Shown here one piece after another: positions 3,528 to 55,889 of a DNA stretch of 64,000 nt. Both the position numbers and the translations under genes were made by a program. The notes under the pieces were generated by a model. The model did no database searches. It saw only the letters and a program-made list of their open reading frames with translations, and was not told the DNA's origin. This DNA comes from an uncultured Candidatus Saccharibacteria bacterium (GTDB lineage: Bacteria > Patescibacteriota > Minisyncoccia > Phycocordibacterales > Zambryskibacteraceae). Numbering within the stretch: position 1 is the first letter of the stretch; the number at the start of each line of letters is the position of its first letter. The DNA is taken from contig CAYHDI010000003.1 of assembly GCA_964355645.1 (NCBI GenBank), forward strand, positions 887 to 64,886, given 5' to 3'.

Positions 3528-3598
3528 CCACCTCACCCCAGCCCCTCTCCTTGTCAAGGAGAGGGGTCGACTCGCGGGCGGCGAGCGGGGGTGAGGTG
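3528..3598 (+). other. GC-rich nested stem-loop element (three-way-junction-like) between nrdJ and gap; probable structured terminator or small RNA element
   Basis: outer stem cacctcacccc/ggggtgaggtg enclosing hairpins cccctctcc-ttgtcaa-ggagagggg and ctcgc-gggcg-gcgag; ~70% GC in an AT-rich genome. Confidence 0.5.
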
Positions 3599-5085: not shown

Positions 5086-5782
5086 AATCATCCCAGCGAT
5101 ATTGCCTGAAGATTTTTCTGATCTTGAAGAAAAGCTTTCTCTCGTGGCCGGACGAGTGCCTATGGTGCATGTGGATATCACGAATGCCACTCTGACCAAA
5201 GAATCAAACTGGCCGTATAGTGGAGACCAAACAGATTTTTTAAAAATTGTGAACGAAGTGGAAGGATTCCCATTCTGGGAAGAAACGAGCTTTGAGGCAC
5301 ACCTCATGGTGAATAACCCGAAAGAGATTATTGAAGATTGGATTCTCGCTGGAGCAGAAAGATTGGTGATTCATGTAGAATCATTTGAAAGTGATAGTGA
5401 ATTGAGCCGAACACTCGATATTTTGAAAAACCGTTTTGATAAGGACACGACCTATCTCGGGATAGAAGTTGGGTTGGCGGTCAATATGAATACTTCGCTT
5501 GAGAAAGTTTATCCTCACGTTCTTGAAGCAGATTTTATCCATCTCATGAGTATTGATGAGATAGGTGAACAAGGAGAAAAATTTGATAAAAAAATATTTG
5601 AAAGGGTTAAGGAGTTGAGAGAGAAATTCCCTGAGACCATTATTGCTGTAGACGGGGGAGTAAATCTTGAGAATGCTTCAGAATTAATCGAAGCTGGCGT
5701 GAGCCGTCTCATCATCGGTTCAGCCATTTTTGATACTGAGAATCCAGAAGAATCTCTCGAAGAATTTCTGGAAGTGGTATAA
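5078..5782 (+). CDS. rpe: Ribulose-phosphate 3-epimerase
   Basis: HLMV...P motif and VDGGVN...GSAIF C-terminal motif; start most likely at MVEIIPAIL (5078), overlapping rpiB by 8 nt; ORF track extends to 5057. Confidence 0.8.
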   Translation: MVEIIPAILPEDFSDLEEKLSLVAGRVPMVHVDITNATLTKESNWPYSGDQTDFLKIVNEVEGFPFWEETSFEAHLMVNNPKEIIEDWILAGAERLVIHVESFESDSELSRTLDILKNRFDKDTTYLGIEVGLAVNMNTSLEKVYPHVLEADFIHLMSIDEIGEQGEKFDKKIFERVKELREKFPETIIAVDGGVNLENASELIEAGVSRLIIGSAIFDTENPEESLEEFLEVV

Positions 5783-9566: not shown

Positions 9567-11254
9567 ATCTGAAAGAAGAAATACAGAAATTTTTTAAGGG
9601 GGAAGTGTTGGATGATGAAGAAACATTGAAGACTTATAGTCATGATGCGTCGCTTTTTGAAGTCAGACCCAAGCTCGTGGTGTATCCACAAGATTCAGAA
9701 GATTTAAAAAAATTAGTGAAATGGGTAAACGATAATACTACGATATATCGTAGTAACAATGAACCACTTTCTATTACTATTCGGGCGGCAGGTTCGTGCA
9801 TGGCTGGTGGGCCACTCGGTGAATCAATTATTGTAGATGTGATGAGGCACATGAATCGTATGGGCGAGGTAACCACCGCCTCTGGCGGGGTCCCGCCTTC
9901 GGCGGTGATCGAACCCGGGGTGTTTTATAGAGATTTTGAACCGAAAACTCTCGAAAAAAGCCTTATTTTGCCCTGTTTTACGGCTTCCAAGAATATGAAC
10001 GCCTTGGGTGGAATGATTGGTAATAATTGTGCAGGAGAAAAAACGCTTCGTTACGGCAAGATGGAGAACTTTATTTTAGAATCAAAAGTGATTTTTTCTG
10101 ATGGGAATGAATACATAGTGAAACCACTGCTTAAACCAGAACTTGATTTTAAAATGAAGCAAAGTGATTTCGAAGGGAATTTATACAAAAATTTATTCGA
10201 GTTAATAGAGAATAATAAAAGAATAATAAAGGAAGCCAAGCCAAATGTTTCCAAAAACTCTGCTGGATATTATTTGTGGAATATTTGGGATGGCAAGACT
10301 TTCGACTTGAACAAACTTATTGTTGGTTCACAAGGTACACTCGGTTTAGTCACAGAAGCAAAGGTGAAGCTTGTGTCTGTGGAACCGGTTTCGAAGTTGT
10401 TTGTAATTTTTCTTCCCGACCTAACTCATATTGCAAAATTAGTGAATGAAATCCTTCCAATGAATCCTGATTCATTGGAAACTTATGATGATGCGACCAT
10501 GAAACTCGCCTTCAGGTTTTTCCCCGAAATGCTGAAATCGATGAAAGCTAAAAGTTTTTTCAAACTTATACTTTCATTTATCCCAGAAGCATTGATGATA
10601 ATTAAACAATTCGGAATTCCGAAAATGTTTGTGCTCGTGGAGTTTGCTGGTCAAACCGAAGCCGAAGTAGATGAGAAATTAGTTAATCTCGAGAACAAGA
10701 TTAAACATTTCGGCTTCGTGATGAGACGAACAAAATCTGAAGAAGAATCGAAGAAGTATTGGACGATTCGTCGAGAGAGTTTTAATCTCTTGCGCAAACA
10801 TGTTCGGGGCAAACGCACAGCCCCCTTTGTGGACGATGTCGTGGTTAGACCGGAATTCATGTCCGAGTTCTTGCCCAAGATGAAAAAAATCTTAGATGAA
10901 TACAAATTGGTTTATACCATCGCGGGTCATGCAGGCAATGGAAATTTTCATATTATTCCTCTTATGGATATGCACGACAAGAGAAATATTAAAGTCATTA
11001 AAGAAGTGGGAAAGAAAATTTATGATTTGGTAAAAGAGTATAAAGGTTCAATCACGGGTGAACACAATGATGGAATAGTTCGTACGCCGTATCTCGGCAA
11101 AATGTATTCTCAGGAAATTCTTGAACTTTTCAAAAAAACCAAAGAAATCTTCGACCCTCAAAATATCTTCAACCCAGGCAAGAAAGTTCCTTCGACAGGC
11201 TCAGGACAAGAGGGAACTATAGAATACCTTGAAAATCACATTGCTATCGAGTAG
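9563..11254 (+). CDS. FAD-linked oxidase (GlcD/D-lactate dehydrogenase-like FAD-binding oxidoreductase)
   Basis: FAD_binding_4-type N-terminus (VVYPQDSEDLKKLVKWVND...RAAGSCMAGGPLG) and C-terminal FAD-oxidase domain. Confidence 0.75.
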   Translation: MNLKEEIQKFFKGEVLDDEETLKTYSHDASLFEVRPKLVVYPQDSEDLKKLVKWVNDNTTIYRSNNEPLSITIRAAGSCMAGGPLGESIIVDVMRHMNRMGEVTTASGGVPPSAVIEPGVFYRDFEPKTLEKSLILPCFTASKNMNALGGMIGNNCAGEKTLRYGKMENFILESKVIFSDGNEYIVKPLLKPELDFKMKQSDFEGNLYKNLFELIENNKRIIKEAKPNVSKNSAGYYLWNIWDGKTFDLNKLIVGSQGTLGLVTEAKVKLVSVEPVSKLFVIFLPDLTHIAKLVNEILPMNPDSLETYDDATMKLAFRFFPEMLKSMKAKSFFKLILSFIPEALMIIKQFGIPKMFVLVEFAGQTEAEVDEKLVNLENKIKHFGFVMRRTKSEEESKKYWTIRRESFNLLRKHVRGKRTAPFVDDVVVRPEFMSEFLPKMKKILDEYKLVYTIAGHAGNGNFHIIPLMDMHDKRNIKVIKEVGKKIYDLVKEYKGSITGEHNDGIVRTPYLGKMYSQEILELFKKTKEIFDPQNIFNPGKKVPSTGSGQEGTIEYLENHIAIE

Positions 11255-15195: not shown

Positions 15196-17064
15196 ATGAA
15201 ATCCGAGAGCTTTCTCCCAGAGAAATATCCCAATATGGCTGGCACTAAACCAGTAGAGAGAGCGGTAGACAAATCCTTTAGACAAGGAGAACAAGGCCCA
15301 AGGGGTAAAGAAGACAGAATCGAAAGATATTTAAGTAGATTAGACCATATAGTCGAAGACGAAAGGGGTTGGGAATTACTTAAACACAAAATCATCAAGG
15401 AATTTTCTATTGATGCTGACGATGAAGAAACACTCACCAAAGTGGCTCATGGTCTATACGAATCAGAGAAGAGAATTGCTATAGAACAAGGTAGGGGGCG
15501 AGACATAGAACAATTGGGTAGTGATGAAGAAATCATCAACAAGTACAAAACCCTTGTTCATGAGAAACAAGATATCCAAGAGAAATCTCTAGCCACTTGG
15601 CTTGATTATCTAGAACAAAACGATGCCGAGTATCCCACTTGGTTTAGATATTTCGTAGTCCGTAACCTCGAGAAGATGGGTAGTATGGACAAAGAAAGAG
15701 GTGAATATACCAAACGTACTTCATACACCGTTGCTCCCTTCCCAGAACTTAACTCTGAAGCACTTGGTTTCGTGTATAGAGTCCTCACTCAAGGTATCGG
15801 CCATGAATTCGACGACGATGAATCACAAAAAGGCACTATCGAATCACTCATAAAGAAGAAAGACTTTTCTAAACTCTATACCTTCGCCCAAATAGAAACA
15901 GCTGGTCAACTCAACAAAGAATCCATCGAAGGTGAATGGGTGAAATATGACCAAGGTTCAGACCATCATATCCTTGAGCAAGCTCTGCGAGGCAAGGGCA
16001 CAGGTTGGTGTACAGCCGAAGGTTCTGCTTATGCTCATCTTCAAGGTGGAGATTTCTATGTCTATTATTCCAAAGGTCCAAATGGTGTATTCACTGAACC
16101 CAGAATCGCTATCCGTATGGACGGAGACAATCTAGGAGAAGTCCGAGGAGTAAATCAGAGACAAGAACTCGAACCCCAACTTATCAGTATTGCTGAAGAT
16201 AAATATCATTCTCTTCCGGGAGGAGAGAAATATGATAAGAAATCACAAGATATGAAAATGGTCACCAAACTCGTGAAGAAACAAGAAAAAGGTGAAAAGT
16301 TTACCAAAGACGACCTAATCTTTCTCTATGAACTCAATTCTCCTATAGAAGGTTTCGGTTACCAACGGGATCCTCGTATAGAGGAACTAAAAAGGGTGAG
16401 AAATCAAACGAGGGGAAAGCTTTCAGAAGATTTATGTATTATTTTTGAATGTACCCCAGACCAATTTGCATACAGTAAAGAAGGTTTAAACAAAAATACC
16501 AAAGTCTACATCGGAGAATGGACACCAGAAGTGCTCAAACTTATACCAGAATCATGTACCCACATCTACGAATACCAAGGGTTCCCAGACAAAAAAGTCT
16601 TTCTCAGAACTCTTGAAACTGACCCATCTATCCAATCACCCGAAGAGGCAGAGAAAGCTCTACTAAACAAGGGTTATCAGATTTCAGATTACGCTCGAGA
16701 TATTTTACAAAAAGTTGAATTCAGCCAAGAAAGCAAATCATATGAATTAGTCTCTTTTTCTGTCTCCCAACTTGGTTTTCCAAATGGTGCCACATTACAA
16801 GAGGTATATAAGAAAGCAGAAGAACTTGGTCTAGAACTCTGTCCAGCTGAGGTTGGGCCACAATTACGTTTGCAATATAAAGATCAACCAGAAGGAGAAT
16901 GGTTAAGGATTGCTATGAATCCTATTGCCGACTCGGGTGGCTTCCCGGACTTGTTCGACGTCCGTCGCGCGGGTGACGTGCTGTGGTTGCGCCGCGGCGA
17001 TGGTCGTCTCGACGACGGGTGGCGTGGCCGTCGCTTCGTTTTCCTCCGTCGCAAGTCTCTTTGA
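15196..17064 (+). CDS. Hypothetical 622-aa protein; candidate diversity-generating-retroelement target with C-terminal variable repeat
   Basis: no recognisable domain in N-terminal 570 aa; last ~45 codons are a GC-rich, Arg/Gly/Asp-rich module (…LWLRRGDGRLDDGWRGRRFVFLRRKSL) duplicated downstream with adenine-specific differences. Confidence 0.6.
   Translation: MKSESFLPEKYPNMAGTKPVERAVDKSFRQGEQGPRGKEDRIERYLSRLDHIVEDERGWELLKHKIIKEFSIDADDEETLTKVAHGLYESEKRIAIEQGRGRDIEQLGSDEEIINKYKTLVHEKQDIQEKSLATWLDYLEQNDAEYPTWFRYFVVRNLEKMGSMDKERGEYTKRTSYTVAPFPELNSEALGFVYRVLTQGIGHEFDDDESQKGTIESLIKKKDFSKLYTFAQIETAGQLNKESIEGEWVKYDQGSDHHILEQALRGKGTGWCTAEGSAYAHLQGGDFYVYYSKGPNGVFTEPRIAIRMDGDNLGEVRGVNQRQELEPQLISIAEDKYHSLPGGEKYDKKSQDMKMVTKLVKKQEKGEKFTKDDLIFLYELNSPIEGFGYQRDPRIEELKRVRNQTRGKLSEDLCIIFECTPDQFAYSKEGLNKNTKVYIGEWTPEVLKLIPESCTHIYEYQGFPDKKVFLRTLETDPSIQSPEEAEKALLNKGYQISDYARDILQKVEFSQESKSYELVSFSVSQLGFPNGATLQEVYKKAEELGLELCPAEVGPQLRLQYKDQPEGEWLRIAMNPIADSGGFPDLFDVRRAGDVLWLRRGDGRLDDGWRGRRFVFLRRKSL
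16921..17061 (+). repeat. Candidate DGR variable repeat (VR) at 3' end of the 622-aa gene
   Basis: ~140-nt repeat; differs from the downstream copy almost only at positions where that copy has A. Confidence 0.6.
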
Positions 17065-17130
17065 CCTTAGACCTTTTGCCCCTTTGGATTTTGAATTTTG
17101 CCCTTAGCCCCTTAGACACTTAGACCTTCG

Positions 17131-17165
17131 GCCACGACCTCCGTGTCGTGGCCGATTTTCTTTTT
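17131..17165 (+). terminator. GC-rich hairpin (ggccacgac-ctccgt-gtcgtggcc) plus T-run downstream of the 622-aa gene
   Basis: 9-bp perfect stem followed by attttcttttt; could also be the cruciform that DGR target sites carry 3' of the VR. Confidence 0.55.
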
Positions 17166-19557: not shown

Positions 19558-19570
19558 GACAACGCCACTT

Positions 19571-19619
19571 CCGACGCTTCTGTTGAAGGTCGGAACCCCG
19601 ACCACTGTGTGCGTCGGGG
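19571..19619. repeat. GC-rich double-hairpin mini-repeat, copy A (intergenic)
   Basis: hairpins ccgac-N13-gtcgg and ccccgac-cactgtgtgc-gtcgggg; related copies at 50672-50719 and 53367-53410. Confidence 0.5.
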
Positions 19620-19629
19620 CTTAGCCAAA

Positions 19630-19890
19630 ATGCCATTTGTTTATATACTCAAAAGTTCTTCAGGTAAGTATTATGTAGGTAGCACTCTAGATCTTAGAAA
19701 GAGATTGAGAGATCATCGTAGTGGCCAAACATATTCAACAAATAGGATGGGAGAGTTAAATTTGATTTTTTCTCAAGAATACTCTAGTCTAAGTGATGCT
19801 CGTTCAGTTGAGAGAAAACTTAAGAAACTAAAAAGGAGGGACTACATTGAGAATATCATTAATGAAGGAAAGATTAAGTTGAGACCGTAA
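19630..19890 (+). CDS. GIY-YIG nuclease-domain protein (small, stand-alone)
   Basis: PFVYILKSSSGKYYVGSTLDLRKRLRDH = GIY-YIG motifs; start taken at MPFVYIL. Confidence 0.7.
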   Translation: MPFVYILKSSSGKYYVGSTLDLRKRLRDHRSGQTYSTNRMGELNLIFSQEYSSLSDARSVERKLKKLKRRDYIENIINEGKIKLRP

Positions 19891-19893
19891 ATT

Positions 19894-19966
19894 GCCACCT
19901 TAGCTCAGTTGGTAGAGCAACGCTTTTGTAAAGCGAAGGTCCCCAGTTCAAGTCTGGGAGGTGGCT
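19894..19966 (+). tRNA. tRNA-Thr (anticodon UGU)
   Basis: cloverleaf: acceptor gccacct/aggtggc, D-arm gctc-agttggta-gagc, anticodon loop ttTGTaa, T-arm cccag-ttcaagt-ctggg; no encoded CCA. Confidence 0.85.
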
Positions 19967-19975
19967 CTAGTTTCT

Positions 19976-22511: not shown

Positions 22512-22538
22512 ACCGACCTCACGAGGGGTCGGTTTTTT
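22512..22538. terminator. Bidirectional Rho-independent terminator (aaaaaccgacc-tcacgag-gggtcggtttttt)
   Basis: 7-bp GC stem flanked by A-run and T-run. Confidence 0.55.
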
Positions 22539-22610
22539 GTTGGTGGTGAGTGGTGACGGAATGAATTGTTCGTTCCGTCACGGGTTCCCCAACCAAGCCA
22601 GGAGGATCAA

Positions 22611-24772: not shown

Positions 24773-26860
24773 GTGGGTACAAAACACATGGCCAAAGACA
24801 AGGACGAAAAGAAAAAAAGCTCGAATTATAGCGCTGAATCGATTACTGTCCTTGAGGGCCTTGATCCTGTGCGTCGCCGACCGGGTATGTATATTGGGAC
24901 CACGGGTCCTGAAGGTCTTCACCATCTTGTTTGGGAAATTTTTGATAACTCACGCGATGAAGCGATGGGCGGATTTGCGAATGATATAGAAGTGACTCTC
25001 CTACCTGATTCAAAGATTCGTGTGGTAGATAATGGTCGAGGCATTCCTGTTGACATTCATAAACAAACAAAAGTTTCTGCCTTGGAAACCATCATGACCA
25101 CTCTTCATGCCGGAGGGAAATTCGGGGGTGAAGGATACAAAGTTTCAGGTGGTTTGCACGGGGTGGGGGCATCAGTGGTGAATGCTCTTTCTATTTATTG
25201 TAGAGCCGAAGTGCACAAAGATGGCGGAATCTATGTCCAGGAGTACGCGATGGGCAAGAAAAAATCTGCGGTGAAGAAAATTGGTACTACCAAACACAAC
25301 GGAACGATTATTACTTTTCAACCGGATCAATCAATCTTTCCTGAAATTAATTTTAGTTTCGAACAAATTGTCAACCATCTTCGACAACAAGCCTATTTGG
25401 TCAAGGGTATGCGTATAAACATCATTGATGCCCGTGCGGAAACGAAGATTAAAGATACCGAAGTGTTTTATATTCGTGAACTTGAGCTCGAGGTACCGTC
25501 GGTCTCATTTTATTTTGAAGGAGGGCTTATGTCCCTTGTGAGATTTGAAAATGATTTGCAGAAACCGATTCACAAAAATATTTTTTATGTAGAGAAAAAT
25601 TCTAATGGTAATGATTATGAGACAGTAGAAGTTGCGCTCCAATACGTAGATGACATTTCGTCGCGCATTCTCCCATTCGCGAACAATATTTATAATGCCG
25701 AGGGAGGCACCCATGTCACTGGATTTAAAACCACATTGACGAGAACCTTGAATACATATGCTCGCAAGAATAATTTAATAAGCGAGAAGGAGGACAATTT
25801 CACTGGAGACGATGTCCTCGAAGGTCTCACCGCTGTGATTTCTATTAAGCTTCGAGAAATTCAGTTTGAAGGTCAAACGAAGGGCAAGCTCGGCTCTGTC
25901 GAGGCTCAGGGAATGGTCACTACGGTCTTCGGAGACGCTTTCGGCATGTTCCTCGAGGAAAACCCAGATGATGCCAAGGCTATTATCCAGAAGGTAGTTT
26001 TGGCCCTTAAGGCCCGCAAAGCGGCCAAGGCAGCCAAGGACAGTGTTCTCCGCAAGGGGGCACTCGAAGGGATGACTCTCCCGGGCAAATTGGCGGATTG
26101 TCAGTCAAAGAGCGCCGAGGAATCAGAGTTGTTTATTGTAGAAGGAGATTCTGCCGGCGGTACAGCGAAGATGGGTCGCGATAGGAAAACTCAAGCTATT
26201 CTCCCACTCCGAGGGAAAATTTTAAACATTGAACGTGCACGACTTGATCGAATGCTCGCTTCAGAACAAATTAAAAACCTCGTGGTGGCTTTCGGTACAG
26301 CCATCGGAGATACGTTTGATATTTCTAAACTTCGCTATCACAAAATTATTATTGCCACGGATGCTGATGTGGACGGCGCACATATTTGCACACTTCTCCT
26401 GACTCTTTTGTATAGATTCTTTAGACCAATGATTGATGCAGGATATATTTATATTGCTCAACCACCTTTGTTTAAGATTCGCAAAGGCAAAGAGATTTTT
26501 TATGCTTATTCGGATGAAGAGCGAGACAAGATAGTGGGTAAAGATGTAAATGTCGAAGAAATTGAAGCCCCGACGCTCGTCGAAGACGAGGCCGGGGTCC
26601 CGTCTCCTGATGATGATCAGGACGTCGGGAAAAACAAAAAAACAAAAGTTTCTATTCAAAGATATAAAGGTCTCGGAGAGATGAACTCGGATGAACTCTG
26701 GGAAACAACCATGGACCCGAAGGTTCGAATTTTGAAACAAGTGATGATAGAGGATGCTCGCGAAGCAGACAAAGTATTCGACATCCTCATGGGCATGGAT
26801 GTACCATCCAGAAAATCTTTTATTCAAACGAATGCCAAGAAGGCTACGATTGATGTGTAA
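24773..26860 (+). CDS. gyrB: DNA gyrase subunit B (short form, no insert)
   Basis: GHKL N-terminus LEGLDPVRRRPGMYIGT, Toprim EGDSAGG, C-terminal QRYKGLGEM; likely start MAKDK at 24788; extended -10 TGCTATAAT at 24763-24771. Confidence 0.9.
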   Translation: MGTKHMAKDKDEKKKSSNYSAESITVLEGLDPVRRRPGMYIGTTGPEGLHHLVWEIFDNSRDEAMGGFANDIEVTLLPDSKIRVVDNGRGIPVDIHKQTKVSALETIMTTLHAGGKFGGEGYKVSGGLHGVGASVVNALSIYCRAEVHKDGGIYVQEYAMGKKKSAVKKIGTTKHNGTIITFQPDQSIFPEINFSFEQIVNHLRQQAYLVKGMRINIIDARAETKIKDTEVFYIRELELEVPSVSFYFEGGLMSLVRFENDLQKPIHKNIFYVEKNSNGNDYETVEVALQYVDDISSRILPFANNIYNAEGGTHVTGFKTTLTRTLNTYARKNNLISEKEDNFTGDDVLEGLTAVISIKLREIQFEGQTKGKLGSVEAQGMVTTVFGDAFGMFLEENPDDAKAIIQKVVLALKARKAAKAAKDSVLRKGALEGMTLPGKLADCQSKSAEESELFIVEGDSAGGTAKMGRDRKTQAILPLRGKILNIERARLDRMLASEQIKNLVVAFGTAIGDTFDISKLRYHKIIIATDADVDGAHICTLLLTLLYRFFRPMIDAGYIYIAQPPLFKIRKGKEIFYAYSDEERDKIVGKDVNVEEIEAPTLVEDEAGVPSPDDDQDVGKNKKTKVSIQRYKGLGEMNSDELWETTMDPKVRILKQVMIEDAREADKVFDILMGMDVPSRKSFIQTNAKKATIDV

Positions 26861-50611: not shown

Positions 50612-51856
50612 ATGAAAAACACCAAAAAACAAAAAAAAGGACGCAAAGCCCATCCAAAGAAAGTGGTCAAGCCCCGACGCGCTACGCGATCGGGGTCCCG
50701 ACCACTGCGTGCGTCGGGAAAAAAAGTTCATAAAAAAATTATCAAAAAAGTTTCTAAGCCAATAAAAATCAAAAAAACAAAAAAAGCGGCTGACGAATTA
50801 ATCAAAATCGAACGACTTATAAAGAAAGGCAAAGATAAAGGCTTCGTGACCTTCGATGAGATTCTCAAGGAATTCCCAACGGCCGAAGATAACATTATTT
50901 TCCTTGATAGTTTGTATGACAGACTCAATGTTTTAGGTATAGATATTCTTGAAAGCGGAGGATTGCTTGAGATGCCTGTCGAGGAAACCGGCAAGAAATA
51001 TTCGTATAGCAAATCTGATTCTTCTTATGACTCAATCCAAATGTATTTGAAGGAGATTGGTCAATACCCACTTATCCCAGGTTCTATGGAAAAGGAATTG
51101 GCGAAGAGAATTGAACAAGGTGATGAAGATGCGAAGAACCTTTTGGCCAAAGCAAACTTGCGTTTAGTAGTGTCTATAGCTAAAAAGTATGCGAATCGAA
51201 GCCCCGACCTGACTCTTCTTGATCTTATTCAAGAAGGGAACCTCGGCTTATTCAAAGCGGTTGATAAGTTTGATTGGACTAAAGGTTATAAATTTTCAAC
51301 CTATGCGACTTGGTGGATTAGACAAGCTATCACTCGGGCCCTCGCAGATCAATCACGTACAATTCGTGTGCCCGTGCACATGGTTGAGACTATTGCCAAG
51401 TACAAACAAGTTGTTCGTCGTTTGACTCAAGATCTCGGGCGCGAACCTCTGGCTGAAGAGATTGCTATGGAAATGAACCTTGATGTAGAGAAAGTTTATC
51501 AAATAGAAAAAATTGATCAGGCCACAGTTTCTCTTGAAAATCCGGTTGGGGATGATGGAGATGATGGAAAGTCTAAACTCGGAGATTTCATTGCGGATGA
51601 CAAGATTATTGCTCCGGATATGGAATCCTCGCGTCGCATCATTCAAGACCAAGTGAAAGAAATTCTCGGCGACCTCCCTCCGAAAGAACGCAAAATTCTC
51701 GAAATGAGACACGGATTAACAGACGGTTATACTCACACCCTTGAAGAAGTGGGGAAAGTTTTCGGTGTCACTCGTGAACGTATCAGACAAATTGAAGCCA
51801 AAGCACACGAAAAGATTCGCCAACACGAGAAAATTAATCGTCTTCGCGGATATTAA
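50612..51856 (+). CDS. rpoD: RNA polymerase sigma factor RpoD with Lys-rich N-terminal extension
   Basis: regions 1.2-4 including [31 protein letters not shown], region 4 HTH; dnaG-rpoD synteny. Confidence 0.9.
50672..50719. repeat. GC-rich double-hairpin mini-repeat, copy B (in-frame inside rpoD N-terminal extension)
   Basis: ccccgac-gcgctacgcga-tcgggg + tcccgac-cactgcgtgc-gtcggga; second hairpin matches copy A at 23/24 nt. Confidence 0.5.
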
Positions 51857-52208: not shown

Positions 52209-53786
52209 TTAAACTAAATCTACAAAGAATTTCCAGAGACGATACATAGCCAGGGTGTCGAGCTTGCAGTATTCAAGCATTTCCTTTTTCTTTTTTTCTA
52301 TATCTTTACTTTTCAATTTGCCTGAAACAATCTTCTCATAGGCATCAATGGCTTCAGTCCCACTCTTCACTCCCAAATCCTTATAGGACAAATCTTTAAT
52401 TAAGGCAGGCAGGACTTTCTTGATTGATGAGCGTCCAAGGAAATCTGGATGCACATAATGTTGGTCCTCAACTATTTTCATCAAATCATATGTTCGATGG
52501 ATAATATCATCAAAAAACTTTTTGTATTTCGGAAGCATATTTCCCAATTCCTTGTTTCTAGTATTTTCAAACGCGGCGTACCAAGAAATGATGCTTCCTT
52601 TGTTGCCTATACGTTCATGAAGACTTTCGGCGATTCTTTCTGCTGGGTCTCCATCAAAAATTAAACATTCATAATGCTCTGGTAAACTGTCTAGTTTCTG
52701 CAAGACGTGCAGAGAATATTGAAAAACAATATGTTGATACGGTTTGTATCCATTGTATCGAGGAATAGCTGTTGGACATGTCTCATAATCTAGGAAATAA
52801 AGAGGGAAGCTGAGCGAATCAAGTTCGGCTTTCAGAGATTCACCGTTCACCATTGGTTTTTGAGATTTATGAACCAAAACTTGATTAAGCTTTTTGTTCT
52901 GTAGGCGTTCATCAACTGGTACGTCTTTCATATCAAGAATCCCAGCATCCAAAAGTTCAGTCAAATATTTTTTGCTATTTCCAATTCTATTCAAATCATG
53001 AACACTATAGGCAGGCACGTTCTTTTCTCTGTTATTGTAAGCGAAAGTAGTACAATGCGATGTGCGACCTTTGTAGAAACACGAACACGGGCCAACTTGC
53101 TCTCTATCAGAAGACAAATATTTGTAGGCTTCCTCCATTTCTATCTCGACTGTTGGGCGAAATTCATCTATGGCTTCGGTTTTGTCTTCGATGATGAAAA
53201 GTGCCCCGGGAGTGAAGTCCAATTCTCCCTCTCGAGTGTAATTTTTGTTCAGTCTGATTAAATATTTTTTATTAAGCTTCACTCCACAATCAGTGACCAC
53301 GTTGGCCTGAAAGGCCAAATCGTATTCATATTGGATTTCCTTTTTGTGTTTCTTTTTGATTTTTCTCCCGACGTTAACAGTCGGGACCCCGGCCTCTTCG
53401 AGCGTCGGGGCGTCCTCATCTTCAGTAGAAGACATCTTGATTTCATACAAATCGTAGCTTTCTGCTTCAGAATTCCATTTCAAAACATCCGTAGCCGCAA
53501 GATATTTGTCCGTTTCAAAGACGGCCTGAAATATCACAGGCATTTTCTCAGCCATGAGTTTCTGGGTTAATTTCTGTGCGCCGGCTCCTCGTTTCTCGAC
53601 CAAATACCCGTTCGGAAACATTCCTCGAGCCAGGAGTTCCACATCATTTCCCATCTCAGCAAGGGACTTTTCGAAATCTGATAATTCGAAATCATTATAA
53701 ATTTCAGGTTTATGCCATTTAACCCAAATGTTTTTCGCGCATTCCCTATAGGAAATGAAATCTGTTTTGGATAAAGTGAGCCCCAT
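52209..53786 (-). CDS. DUF2779-family protein (predicted PD-(D/E)xK nuclease + DnaQ-like exonuclease domains)
   Basis: N-terminal LSKTDFISYRECAKNIWVKW typical of DUF2779; Cys cluster CSCFYKGRTSHC; C-terminal YFLDYETCP…H exonuclease-like motif. Confidence 0.6.
   Translation of the reverse strand: MGLTLSKTDFISYRECAKNIWVKWHKPEIYNDFELSDFEKSLAEMGNDVELLARGMFPNGYLVEKRGAGAQKLTQKLMAEKMPVIFQAVFETDKYLAATDVLKWNSEAESYDLYEIKMSSTEDEDAPTLEEAGVPTVNVGRKIKKKHKKEIQYEYDLAFQANVVTDCGVKLNKKYLIRLNKNYTREGELDFTPGALFIIEDKTEAIDEFRPTVEIEMEEAYKYLSSDREQVGPCSCFYKGRTSHCTTFAYNNREKNVPAYSVHDLNRIGNSKKYLTELLDAGILDMKDVPVDERLQNKKLNQVLVHKSQKPMVNGESLKAELDSLSFPLYFLDYETCPTAIPRYNGYKPYQHIVFQYSLHVLQKLDSLPEHYECLIFDGDPAERIAESLHERIGNKGSIISWYAAFENTRNKELGNMLPKYKKFFDDIIHRTYDLMKIVEDQHYVHPDFLGRSSIKKVLPALIKDLSYKDLGVKSGTEAIDAYEKIVSGKLKSKDIEKKKKEMLEYCKLDTLAMYRLWKFFVDLV
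53367..53410. repeat. GC-rich double-hairpin mini-repeat, copy C (inside DUF2779 gene)
   Basis: tcccgac-gttaacag-tcggga + ccccggc-ctcttcgag-cgtcgggg; shares the cccgac/gtcggg stem module. Confidence 0.4.
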
Positions 53787-54556: not shown

Positions 54557-55132
54557 TTAGAAAGGCAGAGTAAATGTGAGTTTATGTTCGTTCGGCTCTT
54601 CCCATTTGGAAGTATCAAGTTTGATTTCATTCAAATTACCACCTTCTTTAAAAATGAGTTTATTATTTTCGCGGGCAAAATCATAAATCGCTTTGGTAAT
54701 CCTCACATCATCAATACAATATTCACGAATTTTCTCTATCTCGCCGTTTCTCCACCAATTCACGGCTTCTATCCCGTGCCCAATCTTATTCTTGCCGAGC
54801 GTACCTTCGGCCAGTTGGTCGAGTTTCATTCTGCGTCCATATGATGATTGAATTTCTTTGAGGATATCCAAACTTTTTATTTTCGTCAGGTCGCCCGGAT
54901 AATATTTGTTCAAAAGAGGAATGTCGAAGTGGTCAGAATTAAAACCGATGAGCATATCTGCCCGTTCGAGGATGGGCCAAAGCTTCGGTAATTCTTCTTC
55001 TAGGTATGAGGAGTATTCGTCAGTTTCTGAATCATGAATACAAACCATGGAAATATCTAAAAGAGTCGGGTCATTCTTACCCACATCAGAAAAAAAGTTT
55101 TTGGTTTCTATGTCGAAAGTAATCTTACGCAT
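54557..55132 (-). CDS. DEDD-family 3'-5' exonuclease (RNase H-like fold)
   Basis: motif I ITFDIET, motif II FNSDHFDIPLL, motif III YCIDDV; start at MRKITF overlapping upstream hisS-like stop by 8 nt. Confidence 0.65.
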   Translation of the reverse strand: MRKITFDIETKNFFSDVGKNDPTLLDISMVCIHDSETDEYSSYLEEELPKLWPILERADMLIGFNSDHFDIPLLNKYYPGDLTKIKSLDILKEIQSSYGRRMKLDQLAEGTLGKNKIGHGIEAVNWWRNGEIEKIREYCIDDVRITKAIYDFARENNKLIFKEGGNLNEIKLDTSKWEEPNEHKLTFTLPF

Positions 55133-55889
55133 ATGGACCCAGTTTGTGTGTCTCAAGGAAATCACGAAGAGTAATATCTCCCATACCGAAACCAACAGCA
55201 GGTGTCAATTCTACATCAAATAATTCTAAAAGATTGTCGTATCTTCCACCTCCTGCAATAGCTCGCGGATTTTCTGTGTTAGTGTCGAATATTTCAAAAA
55301 CTATTCCGGTGTAATAAGTTTGTCCTCGAGCAAGTGTTTGGTCAGAAACAATGTTTGGTGCAATATCTTTGAATATTTCAGGATTAGAATTGTTTACTCT
55401 GATTTCAAAATCTTCATCTCTTGCTCCAAACTCTTTCATGATTGAATAAGCCAAAGAGATTATCTCTCTATCTCCTTCAATTCCCGCTATGCCCAAAAGA
55501 TCAGCGTTGAGTTGCCAGTGTTCACGCTTTCTGCCTCGTTGGGGCTTTTCATATCGAAAAAGGTTTGGGATAGAATACCAGCGAAGAGGAAATTTCAAAC
55601 TCTTTCTTCTCCCAGCCACCATGCGGGCAAGCGTGGGAGTCATTTCTGGACGAAGGGTAACAGATCGATCTCCGCGGTCGGTGAAGGTAAAGGTTTGCTC
55701 GTTGACTATCTCTTCGCCGGACTTCTCGCTATAAATTTCGGTAGGTTCAAGTATGGAAGCGCCGTATTCTTCATAGTTAAACTTTTCCGCTATTTTTTTC
55801 CATGTATTAAAAATATAATTCTGAATAGCCATATCTTCAGGATAAAAATCCCTTACACCCTTGTATGGAGCTGTATCAAGTTTGGACAT
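55125..55889 (-). CDS. hisS: Histidyl-tRNA synthetase-like catalytic core lacking anticodon-binding domain (254 aa)
   Basis: class II motif 2 FRYEKPQRGRKREHWQ, HisRS motif 3 AIAGGGRYDNL, ends GFGMGDITLRDF where ABD normally begins. Confidence 0.75.
   Translation of the reverse strand: MSKLDTAPYKGVRDFYPEDMAIQNYIFNTWKKIAEKFNYEEYGASILEPTEIYSEKSGEEIVNEQTFTFTDRGDRSVTLRPEMTPTLARMVAGRRKSLKFPLRWYSIPNLFRYEKPQRGRKREHWQLNADLLGIAGIEGDREIISLAYSIMKEFGARDEDFEIRVNNSNPEIFKDIAPNIVSDQTLARGQTYYTGIVFEIFDTNTENPRAIAGGGRYDNLLELFDVELTPAVGFGMGDITLRDFLETHKLGPYA

Follow-up and report, generated by a model that had tools for sequence, protein, structure and literature searches.

A family of double-hairpin mini-elements in Patescibacteria, with in-frame copies and a tRNA-linked GIY-YIG nuclease as candidate partner

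Small palindromic repeats inserted in-frame in essential genes have been described in Rickettsia, in some Proteobacteria and in mitochondria. Their mode of movement is for the most part unsolved, above all where a family has no REP-associated tyrosine transposase (RAYT). The Rickettsia palindromic elements (RPEs) were reportedly described by Ogata et al. in 2000. Here we analyse a family of double-hairpin mini-elements, given the working label ELEM, in a 64,000-nucleotide stretch of DNA from an uncultured bacterium of the Zambryskibacteraceae (Patescibacteriota; assembly GCA_964355645.1, contig CAYHDI010000003.1, positions 887 to 64,886), which is called the window below. Among the closest described systems, the superfamilies of repetitive extragenic palindromic (REP) sequences carry an unpaired GTAG or CGTC tag at one end, with a 3-nt tail in the CGTC families; the GTAG-type REPs have RAYT partners, and the host genes of intragenic REP dimers and RPEs, including RPE-4/6, comprise uvrA, dnaE and helicases (PMC3733652, Di Nocera et al. 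2013). Mitochondrial counterparts are the double-hairpin elements (DHEs) of Allomyces and Schizosaccharomyces and the yeast GC clusters, of which GC42 has an AG target (PMC10085805; PMC4478555). On the side of the enzymes, SLX1 is a family of structure-selective nucleases, and Slx1, which carries a zinc finger at its C-terminus, depends on Slx4 (PMC7017083); the Seg family of phage T4 includes SegB, a free-standing GIY-YIG gene in a tRNA gene cluster, according to an excerpt of the source (PMC13096335).

The ELEM family is widespread in Patescibacteria, ultra-small groundwater bacteria whose genomes are tiny and supposedly streamlined. We think it reasonably probable that ELEM is a REP/RPE-like, non-autonomous selfish DNA element of this group, with a GIY-YIG nuclease as its most likely partner.

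The double-hairpin family and its four copies

ELEM is built of two adjoining hairpins with a 7-bp stem each (YCCCGAC-loop-GTCGGGR, twice over) and, since the halves adjoin without a spacer, the centre, GGGRYCCC, is itself palindromic. Across the family the elements measure approximately 38-55 bp, with loops of 5-25 nt per hairpin, and the units are always paired. The window holds four copies, A to D (Table 1). A preliminary description of this DNA had reported three double-hairpin loci, A, B and C, and these were present as described, with enrichment, folds and covariance model in agreement; its coordinates hold for B, whereas with 7-bp stems A starts at 19569 and C at 53366, and the fourth copy, D, had been overlooked.

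Table 1. Copies of the element and associated features in the window
Feature	Coordinates	Strand	Description	Covariance model
Copy A	19569-19619	.	hairpin 1 TTCCGAC-loop-GTCGGAA, 19569-19595; hairpin 2 CCCCGAC-CACTGTGTGC-GTCGGGG, 19596-19619	39 bits, E ~1e-7
Copy B	50672-50719	+	in-frame in the Lys-rich N-terminal extension of rpoD (50612-51856); encodes 16 residues	36-38 bits, E 2e-7 to 5e-7
Copy C	53366-53410	-	in-frame in a DUF2779-domain gene (52209-53786, minus strand); encodes APTLEEAGVPTVNVG	42 bits, E ~2e-8
Copy D	26568-26630	+	degenerate (CCCGTC arm, long loops); in-frame in gyrB (24773-26860); encodes APTLVEDEAGVPSPDDDQDVG	17 bits, E 0.015
Ghost tRNA-Thr	19564-19625	+	second copy of nt 1-11 of tRNA-Thr (GCCAC ... 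CTTAGC), interrupted by copy A between nt 5 and 6	
GIY-YIG nuclease gene	19630-19890	+	stand-alone, 86 aa; UPF0213/YhbQ/Slx1-like; Pfam PF01541, 2.8e-14	
tRNA-Thr(TGT)	19894-19967	+	intact; ARAGORN; Rfam tRNA 66.8 bits; 3 nt past the nuclease stop codon	
Candidate E	9876-9905	+	CCGCC-TCT-GGCGG GGT CCCGCC-TTC-GGCGG in a FAD-oxidase gene; possible sister type, membership uncertain	

The GC content of the window is about 41%, and CCGAC-N4-20-GTCGG was found in it five times against 0.26 expected. A sequence-blind scan for two adjoining GC-rich hairpins returned six sites, compared with 0.2 in shuffled sequence, and four of the six are copies A to D. DNA fold z-scores were -5.5/-5.7 for A, -4.9 for D and within about -5 to -6 for B; that of C was weaker (-1.2). 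The covariance model, made from 45 metagenome copies with none from the window, was run unfiltered over the window and gave no significant match beyond A to D.

The metagenome copies match the pattern CCCGAC-N5-22-GGGRYCCCGAC-N5-12-GTCGGGA, and all metagenome counts given here are counts among the matches listed. The pattern was found at at least 120 loci, in many genomes and of 30% to 63% GC, with highly variable loops. The same pattern without its final A had no match in 2.9 million viral contigs, and Rfam covariance scans, at the gathering threshold for the window and at E<=1 for 12 ELEM loci, returned tRNAs only.

Aligned on the gene-sense strand, B, C and D read GCCCCGAC-loop-(G/C)(T/C)CGGGG^TCCCGAC-loop-GTCGGGA, where the caret, here and below, marks a junction. 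Hairpin 2 of A and B, already noted as nearly identical, agrees at 21 of 22 positions, loop counted, and its CACTNNGTGC loop also occurs upstream of the nuclease gene of locus L103 and in rpoD of L085 and L087; C and D have in common a derived GCCGGGG arm and a GCTCG..AAGA..GG loop. These likenesses point to two sub-lineages in the window, {A, B} and {C, D}, each across unrelated loci. Variant stems with compensating changes also occur: TCCGAC/GTCGGA in A, GCCGAC/GTCGGC in L209 and L103, and possibly CCGCC/GGCGG. None of the four copies has a T-run after its hairpins.

In the reading frame, B is of the PRR..SGSRP..ASGK type and lies in the lysine-rich tail of rpoD, in agreement with the preliminary description, while C and D give APTL(V)E(D)EAGVP.. 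in acidic linkers. The position of C, earlier given only as the DUF2779 gene, can be refined to an acidic/lysine-rich linker at aa ~126-141 of the protein, upstream of the domain proper (aa 330-454); D occupies the acidic linker of gyrB, with Toprim on one side and GyrB_C on the other.

Other sites on related stems were seen. Candidate E has the GGGGTCCCG centre in common with the family; it is unsupported by the covariance model (E=6), its site is only ~4 aa longer than the PDB homologue, and we keep it as a possible CCGCC-stem sister type because CCGCC-type look-alikes occur in L005 and L207. Rejected as family members were 22513-22532, a single CCGAC/GTCGG hairpin followed by a T-run and terminator-like; 17106-17153, with a covariance model E of 0.3; and GAAGCCCCGAC at 51202 (rpoD region 2) and 57437 (BipA), which is ordinary coding sequence (EAPT/SPD) with no element. 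Terminator-like single hairpins on the (C)CCGAC/GTCGG(G) stem, with a T-run, lie at 22513-22545 in the window and in the relatives L032 (~20199), L037 (~8122), L055 (~15730), L058 (~17783) and L064 (~12687); the ELEM stem sequence may be derived from, or common to, terminators of the clade. Tandem GGGATCCCGAC-N-GTC arrays, which are not simple dimers, were seen in L205 (~1260-1330), L208 (~1240-1310), L193 and L170, and may be an array-forming variant of ELEM.

Gain and loss of copies among relatives

ELEM copies are gained and lost between close relatives. The gene content of the window is bacterial (rpoB/C/D, gyrB, dnaG), and its source is a Zambryskibacteria-like groundwater Parcubacterium; the rpoD protein is found on Hainich aquifer contigs, and its closest named relatives are Zambryskibacteria/Paceibacteria metagenome-assembled genomes. 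Copy B is missing from the closest rpoD homologues, which are 93-94% identical, and from rpoD of P0002, P0003, P0005 and L005. Most of 120 close rpoD homologues have no insert, and a double hairpin was found in a few (P0004, P0011, P0024 and P0092, plus L017 and L023), always in the PRR..SGSRP..ASGK frame and at varying positions within the Lys-rich tail. The 11-13 residues of copy C are missing from the DUF2779 orthologues at 73%, 61% and 60% identity and from those in L005, L082 and L019, and copy D is missing from gyrB orthologues at 93-87% identity. The preliminary description had proposed to compare the rpoD and DUF2779 orthologues and to search for further copies, and it was to be given up if the orthologues conserved the sequence as coding sequence and no further copies turned up; the orthologues lack the insert, and the pattern search yielded the metagenome loci reported above.

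The closest relatives, L217 and L218, have gyrB genes 91% and 87% identical to that of the window, in syntenic regions (L218 and L005 are one contig). In 64 kb of their syntenic DNA the unfiltered covariance model found no ELEM, compared with four in the window. Their tRNA-Thr locus is an empty site, with no ghost, no copy A and no nuclease gene; it reads TAA-GAATAC-tRNA in L218 and TAG-AAGTCGGTCCCAAATGT-tRNA in L217, the latter with a 17-nt spacer at 5563-5579. A GTCGG-TCCC in the spacer AAGTCGGTCCCAAATGT of L217 resembles the ELEM centre, and the spacer sequence AAGTCGGTCCC may be an ELEM relic or an excision footprint.

Across the rpoD neighbourhoods of 80 GTDB species, about 1.4 Mb, only three ELEM were found, all at rpoD. 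Four copies per 64 kb against ~1 per 470 kb in relatives indicate a recent burst in the lineage of the window.

Among the metagenome matches listed, 43 of 116 distinct copies (~37%) fall within frames that run uninterrupted for 230 codons or more. By orientation, 14 of these coding copies are sense, 12 antisense and 17 symmetric, and the absence of any strand preference with respect to the host genes favours a DNA-level element over an mRNA signal. Hosts confirmed by Pfam are DNA polymerase III alpha (DnaE), UvrA (twice), a UvrD/PD-(D/E)XK helicase-nuclease, PPDK, SMC, H+-pyrophosphatase, DnaK, PIF1 helicase and GatA; the PPDK insert lies between PPDK_N and the mobile domain, and other inserts lie at loops or domain edges. 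In-frame copies in linkers and loops, with orthologues that lack them, support the earlier idea that the element can insert into tolerant coding regions.

Two different DnaK genes carry ELEM at the same loop, at aa 210-223 in L131 and aa 193-207 in L132 (AYGFGK(N)K^PRR..ASGK^(D/N)EK..VFDFGGG); either the insertion was inherited or the loop is a hot spot. The rpoD N-termini of P0024, P0043, P0067, P0075, P0083, P0103 and P0032 contain other odd non-lysine peptides (PLENTRGKQ, TPRLSSGQAKP, ISRHSSRQAKP, LKPPPWRGKPRG), a sign that there may be more families of small inserts rich in GC and that this tail may be a hot spot for insertion in general.

The ghost tRNA, the nuclease gene and their association with the element

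Copy A lies upstream of the GIY-YIG gene, as had been stated, but the DNA once taken as merely intergenic is a duplicated 5' fragment of tRNA-Thr, here called the ghost, which the copy splits (GCCAC^A^CTTAGC). The order of the locus is orf132 TAA GACAAC, GCCAC (copy A) CTTAGC, CAAA ATG...86-aa GIY-YIG...TAA ATT, GCCACCTTAGCTCAG...tRNA-Thr(TGT). The intact tRNA 5' end used for the comparison is GCCACCTTAGCTCAG at 19894, and the empty sites of L217 and L218 hold a single copy. Ghost tRNA 5' fragment, ELEM, D-loop remnant, GIY-YIG open reading frame (ORF) and intact tRNA were also found in L098, L103, L108, L110, L143, L145, L194 and L201. When homologues were picked by protein similarity alone, the arrangement ghost-ELEM-ORF-tRNA was present in three of three, L209 with tRNA-Thr-TGT and L212 and L216 with tRNA-Ile-TAT. 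The ghost of every inspected cassette, that is, of the window and of all the relatives just named, contains at least one ELEM; in the four nuclease genes inspected for it (the window and the three chosen by protein similarity) the element lies 5-20 nt upstream of the start codon. The L143 ghost has two ELEM, and in L209 and L110 a second one stands in the D-loop of a downstream, 5'-truncated duplicate tRNA.

In five cassettes (L098, L103, L145, L201 and L209) the stop codon of the nuclease ORF is the TAG of the tRNA D-stem. Should this ORF be transcribed as the leader of the pre-tRNA, processing by RNase P would cut the stop codon away, and the resulting non-stop mRNA might act as a brake on expression.

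The nucleases of the window and of L209 are 70% identical and stand before the same tRNA-Thr(TGT), with an identical tRNA 5' end of 15 nt, while the background genes of the two are 45% (EF-Ts), 48% (S2) and 67% (gyrB, N-terminal part) identical. Relatives with EF-Ts 88-91% identical to the window have no cassette and their sites are empty. Such a nuclease identity with a distant genome, together with the empty sites in close relatives, argues for horizontal, site-specific acquisition, and from sequence comparison the cassette looks horizontally mobile, like homing endonuclease genes.

In a family alignment of 22 sequences the GIY-YIG residues Y5, Y15, H29 and E61 are invariant and R25 is kept in at least 90%. 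Profile matches were the UPF0213 proteins BH0048 and EF2693 (PDB 1zg2, 7.9e-13, and 1ywl, 7.7e-10), then SLX1 (5e-3). PHROGs and NCBIfam gave weak homing-endonuclease hints only for the nuclease, and a viral search with its profile found only distant generic GIY-YIG genes, at no more than 39% identity.

At 8 of ~120 loci among the matches listed (0.74 Mb) there is a GIY-YIG homologue no more than 160 nt away from ELEM, compared with none in 1.46 Mb of rpoD loci. Clustering of the 323 ORFs that neighbour these ELEM gave one recurrent family, the nuclease, at 7 loci, and no recurrent transposase or RAYT family. The nuclease, which the preliminary description had raised as a possible partner along with a check for transposases, is thus the sole recurrent neighbour, by association, and is probably the partner enzyme of ELEM. 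The element is also linked with tRNAs: 19 of 122 ELEM listed lie within 110 nt of one, most of them in a ghost and 12-35 nt upstream (GTAG^ELEM^CTCA..), and ELEM loci hold 59 tRNAs, compared with 3 in control DNA twice as long. The flanking bases of the listed copies are A at -2 (63%), R at -1 (81%), Y at +1 (79%) and T at +2 (61%), that is, AR^YT, a context which the TAGCTCA of the tRNA D-arm fits; TAG directly precedes 20 of 106 copies (~19%).

Three further features of the window were noticed. A GC-rich double hairpin at 3535-3585 (CCCCTCTCCTTGTCAAGGAGAGGGG + CTCGCGGGCGGCGAG; DNA fold z -4.4), in the spacer between ribonucleotide reductase and GAPDH, is unrelated in sequence to the CCCGAC family. 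The ORF at 15196-17064 (622 aa; no Pfam or NCBIfam match) ends in ~45 codons (16927-17055) of ~70-78% GC with hairpins, and a strong GC hairpin, TCGGCCACGAC..GTCGTGGCCGA, stands past its stop codon (17106-17155); this tail and hairpin may represent a different sort of GC-rich insert, or else a terminator. The histidyl-tRNA synthetase ORF at 55125-55889 (minus strand) has 254 aa and no anticodon-binding domain on record, compared with 424 aa and HGTP_anticodon in the L087 homologue, and the gene may be truncated or rearranged.

How the element may spread, and comparison with known systems

As a selfish REP/RPE-like element, ELEM would be copied into AR^YT sites and would survive only in neutral DNA or in tolerant, disordered protein segments, read in a frame that suits the local charge, PRR..SGSRP..ASGK where the tail is basic and APT..AGVPT..VG where the linker is acidic. 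The structure-selective GIY-YIG nuclease of the cassette would recognise the extruded double hairpin or cruciform, and a nick or cut at an ELEM hairpin would seed copying via recombinational repair. Within the cassette, ELEM may destroy the residual target of the nuclease in the ghost, or may mask the Shine-Dalgarno-like GGGA/GGGG that stands just before the start codon; alternatively, the ghost would capture ELEM repeatedly because the residual target lies there. The specific proposal that a stand-alone Slx1-like GIY-YIG nuclease mobilises ELEM in trans by acting on extruded double-hairpin or cruciform DNA is a tentative one, and we regard it as possible though doubtful.

Several observations weigh against a selfish element with the nuclease as its partner. 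The link between the two is associative, and the correlation of nuclease presence with ELEM number rests on one lineage. The 86-aa protein is a catalytic domain, without a DNA-binding domain. The loops of ELEM and its position in the ghost vary by cassette (between nt 5 and 6 in the window, between nt 11 and 12 in L212 and L216, after GCTCAG in L209), and ELEM is therefore not a fixed cassette end. At tRNA sites with known uninterrupted sequence (GTAG^ELEM^CTCA) neither a target-site duplication nor an excision footprint was found. The gyrB orthologues have, in place of copy D, an acidic linker that is unrelated in sequence though similar in length, so that D substitutes for sequence and is not a plain addition. 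The invariance of the stems in the metagenome set is partly circular, as the pattern demands exact stems, and the neighbour-ORF data are compatible with a transposase elsewhere in the genome.

Some of these points would suit a selfish or neutral palindrome that has no dedicated enzyme and spreads by host recombination, gene conversion or template switching at hairpins, with the adjacency of the nuclease as a by-product. The variation of loops and positions among cassettes, the lack of target-site duplication, the AR^YT flanks with the TAGCTCA of tRNA D-arms and the apparent equal-length replacement at D all agree with it, and CGTC-type REPs are likewise without a dedicated transposase (PMC3733652); the adjacency would follow if the ghost is rare neutral DNA in compact genomes and the D-arm holds the preferred AG^CT site. 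We nevertheless judge this explanation unlikely, since at least one ELEM in every inspected ghost is hard to reach by neutral accumulation at ~1 per 470 kb elsewhere, and the four-copy burst coincides with cassette acquisition in the one checkable lineage. Still less probable is an unseen single-strand transposase (HUH/Y1, RAYT-like or IS200/IS605-like) elsewhere in the genome, with the GIY-YIG protein as an unrelated, tRNA-targeting homing endonuclease. Insertion 3' of TAG, AAG, AAA or TAA at 52 of the 106 copies listed recalls IS200/IS605 and GTAG-REP logic (PMC3733652), and many copies directly follow a tRNA GTAG; however, only GIY-YIG recurs among the neighbour ORFs, TAG flanks no more than about a fifth of the copies (~19%), and the flanks are symmetric (AR...YT) and not a one-sided tag.

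A functional cis-element selected at each site (an mRNA stabiliser, RNase site, terminator, attenuator or protein-binding site) is highly improbable. It would fit the position of the element, 5-20 nt before the start codon of the nuclease, and the GGGA/GGGG of its 3' arm, the terminator-like single CCCGAC/GTCGGG hairpins with T-runs in the window (22513) and in relatives, and loops that are often of stable GAA, GAAA or TTCG types; but the coding copies are unbiased in orientation (14 sense, 12 antisense), the double hairpins have no T-run, the host genes are unrelated, close orthologues have no copies and no Rfam family matches. As for chance resemblance or ordinary conserved coding sequence, GAAGCCCCGAC does occur in ordinary coding sequence, yet shuffle controls, independent covariance-model matches and orthologues without copies refute this explanation.

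With clean empty sites, a recent burst and a single candidate enzyme in a tRNA-linked cassette, the question of mobilisation can be put to a direct test with a protein of 86 aa and substrates of 50 nt. ELEM inserts inflate and diversify linkers in such core proteins as the sigma factor, gyrase, DnaK, DnaE and UvrA, and can be a source of error in alignments, phylogenies and gene calls for candidate-phyla genomes. If the nuclease does mobilise ELEM, the family would be the first case among bacterial miniature elements in which a structure-selective nuclease of the GIY-YIG type drives the system, and would offer a candidate answer for palindromes without a transposase, such as CGTC REPs/RPEs, mitochondrial GC clusters and DHEs.

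The literature consulted, with most subscription journals outside its scope, holds no description of the ELEM family or of tRNA-linked UPF0213 cassettes, and nowhere places the UPF0213/YhbQ family beside tRNA genes or palindromic repeats. The window protein resembles UPF0213/YhbQ/YazA/Slx1 by profile match and keeps the catalytic Tyr, Tyr, Arg, His and Glu; it consists of the GIY-YIG domain alone, in contrast to Slx1 with its zinc finger and its need for Slx4. Like a homing endonuclease gene, the cassette has an intact catalytic motif and shows presence or absence at a conserved site with phylogenetic incongruence, but the separate DNA-binding domain, which confers long-site specificity, is missing. 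As far as the excerpt on T4 SegB goes, the likeness extends to a small GIY-YIG gene by tRNA genes, presence/absence, apparent horizontal transfer and an intact target gene; SegB, as described there, has a DNA-binding part, no such repeat and a phage setting, whereas here an 86-aa catalytic domain and an ELEM-split tRNA fragment are found in a cellular host.

Mitochondrial DHEs and GC clusters share with ELEM two adjoining GC-rich hairpins in an AT-richer genome, conserved stems with variable loops, polymorphism and, at times, a place in rRNA or coding genes. They are organellar whereas ELEM is bacterial, there is no sequence relationship, and the texts consulted report no consistent nuclease/tRNA cassette for them. 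The label of a REP/MITE-like small mobile element in the preliminary description holds for the REP/RPE-like part, given presence and absence of copies; a strict MITE (a miniature transposable element with inverted repeats) it is not, because no target-site duplication and no insertion sequence (IS) parent were found, although the outer arms are inverted repeats. ELEM differs from REPs in having no GTAG/CGTC tag and no CCA tail, in hairpins that directly adjoin, with identical stems and free loops, and in a recurrent neighbour (judged on neighbouring ORFs) that is a GIY-YIG gene with tRNA ghosts and not a RAYT; from RPEs, which belong to Rickettsiales, it differs in its Parcubacteria host and, going by their description, in a consensus unlike that of RPE-4/6, which is a CGTC REP. 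Like REPs, which are imperfect palindromes of 20-40 bp and often dimeric, it forms multi-copy GC-rich palindromic pairs, with four copies in 64 kb; like RPEs, it lies in-frame in undisrupted genes, here rpoD, DUF2779 and gyrB and elsewhere DnaE, UvrA, DnaK and SMC. In common with both, ELEM is a short GC-rich palindrome, often a dimer, that is found between genes as well as in-frame, where it adds 15-30 residues in tolerant segments.

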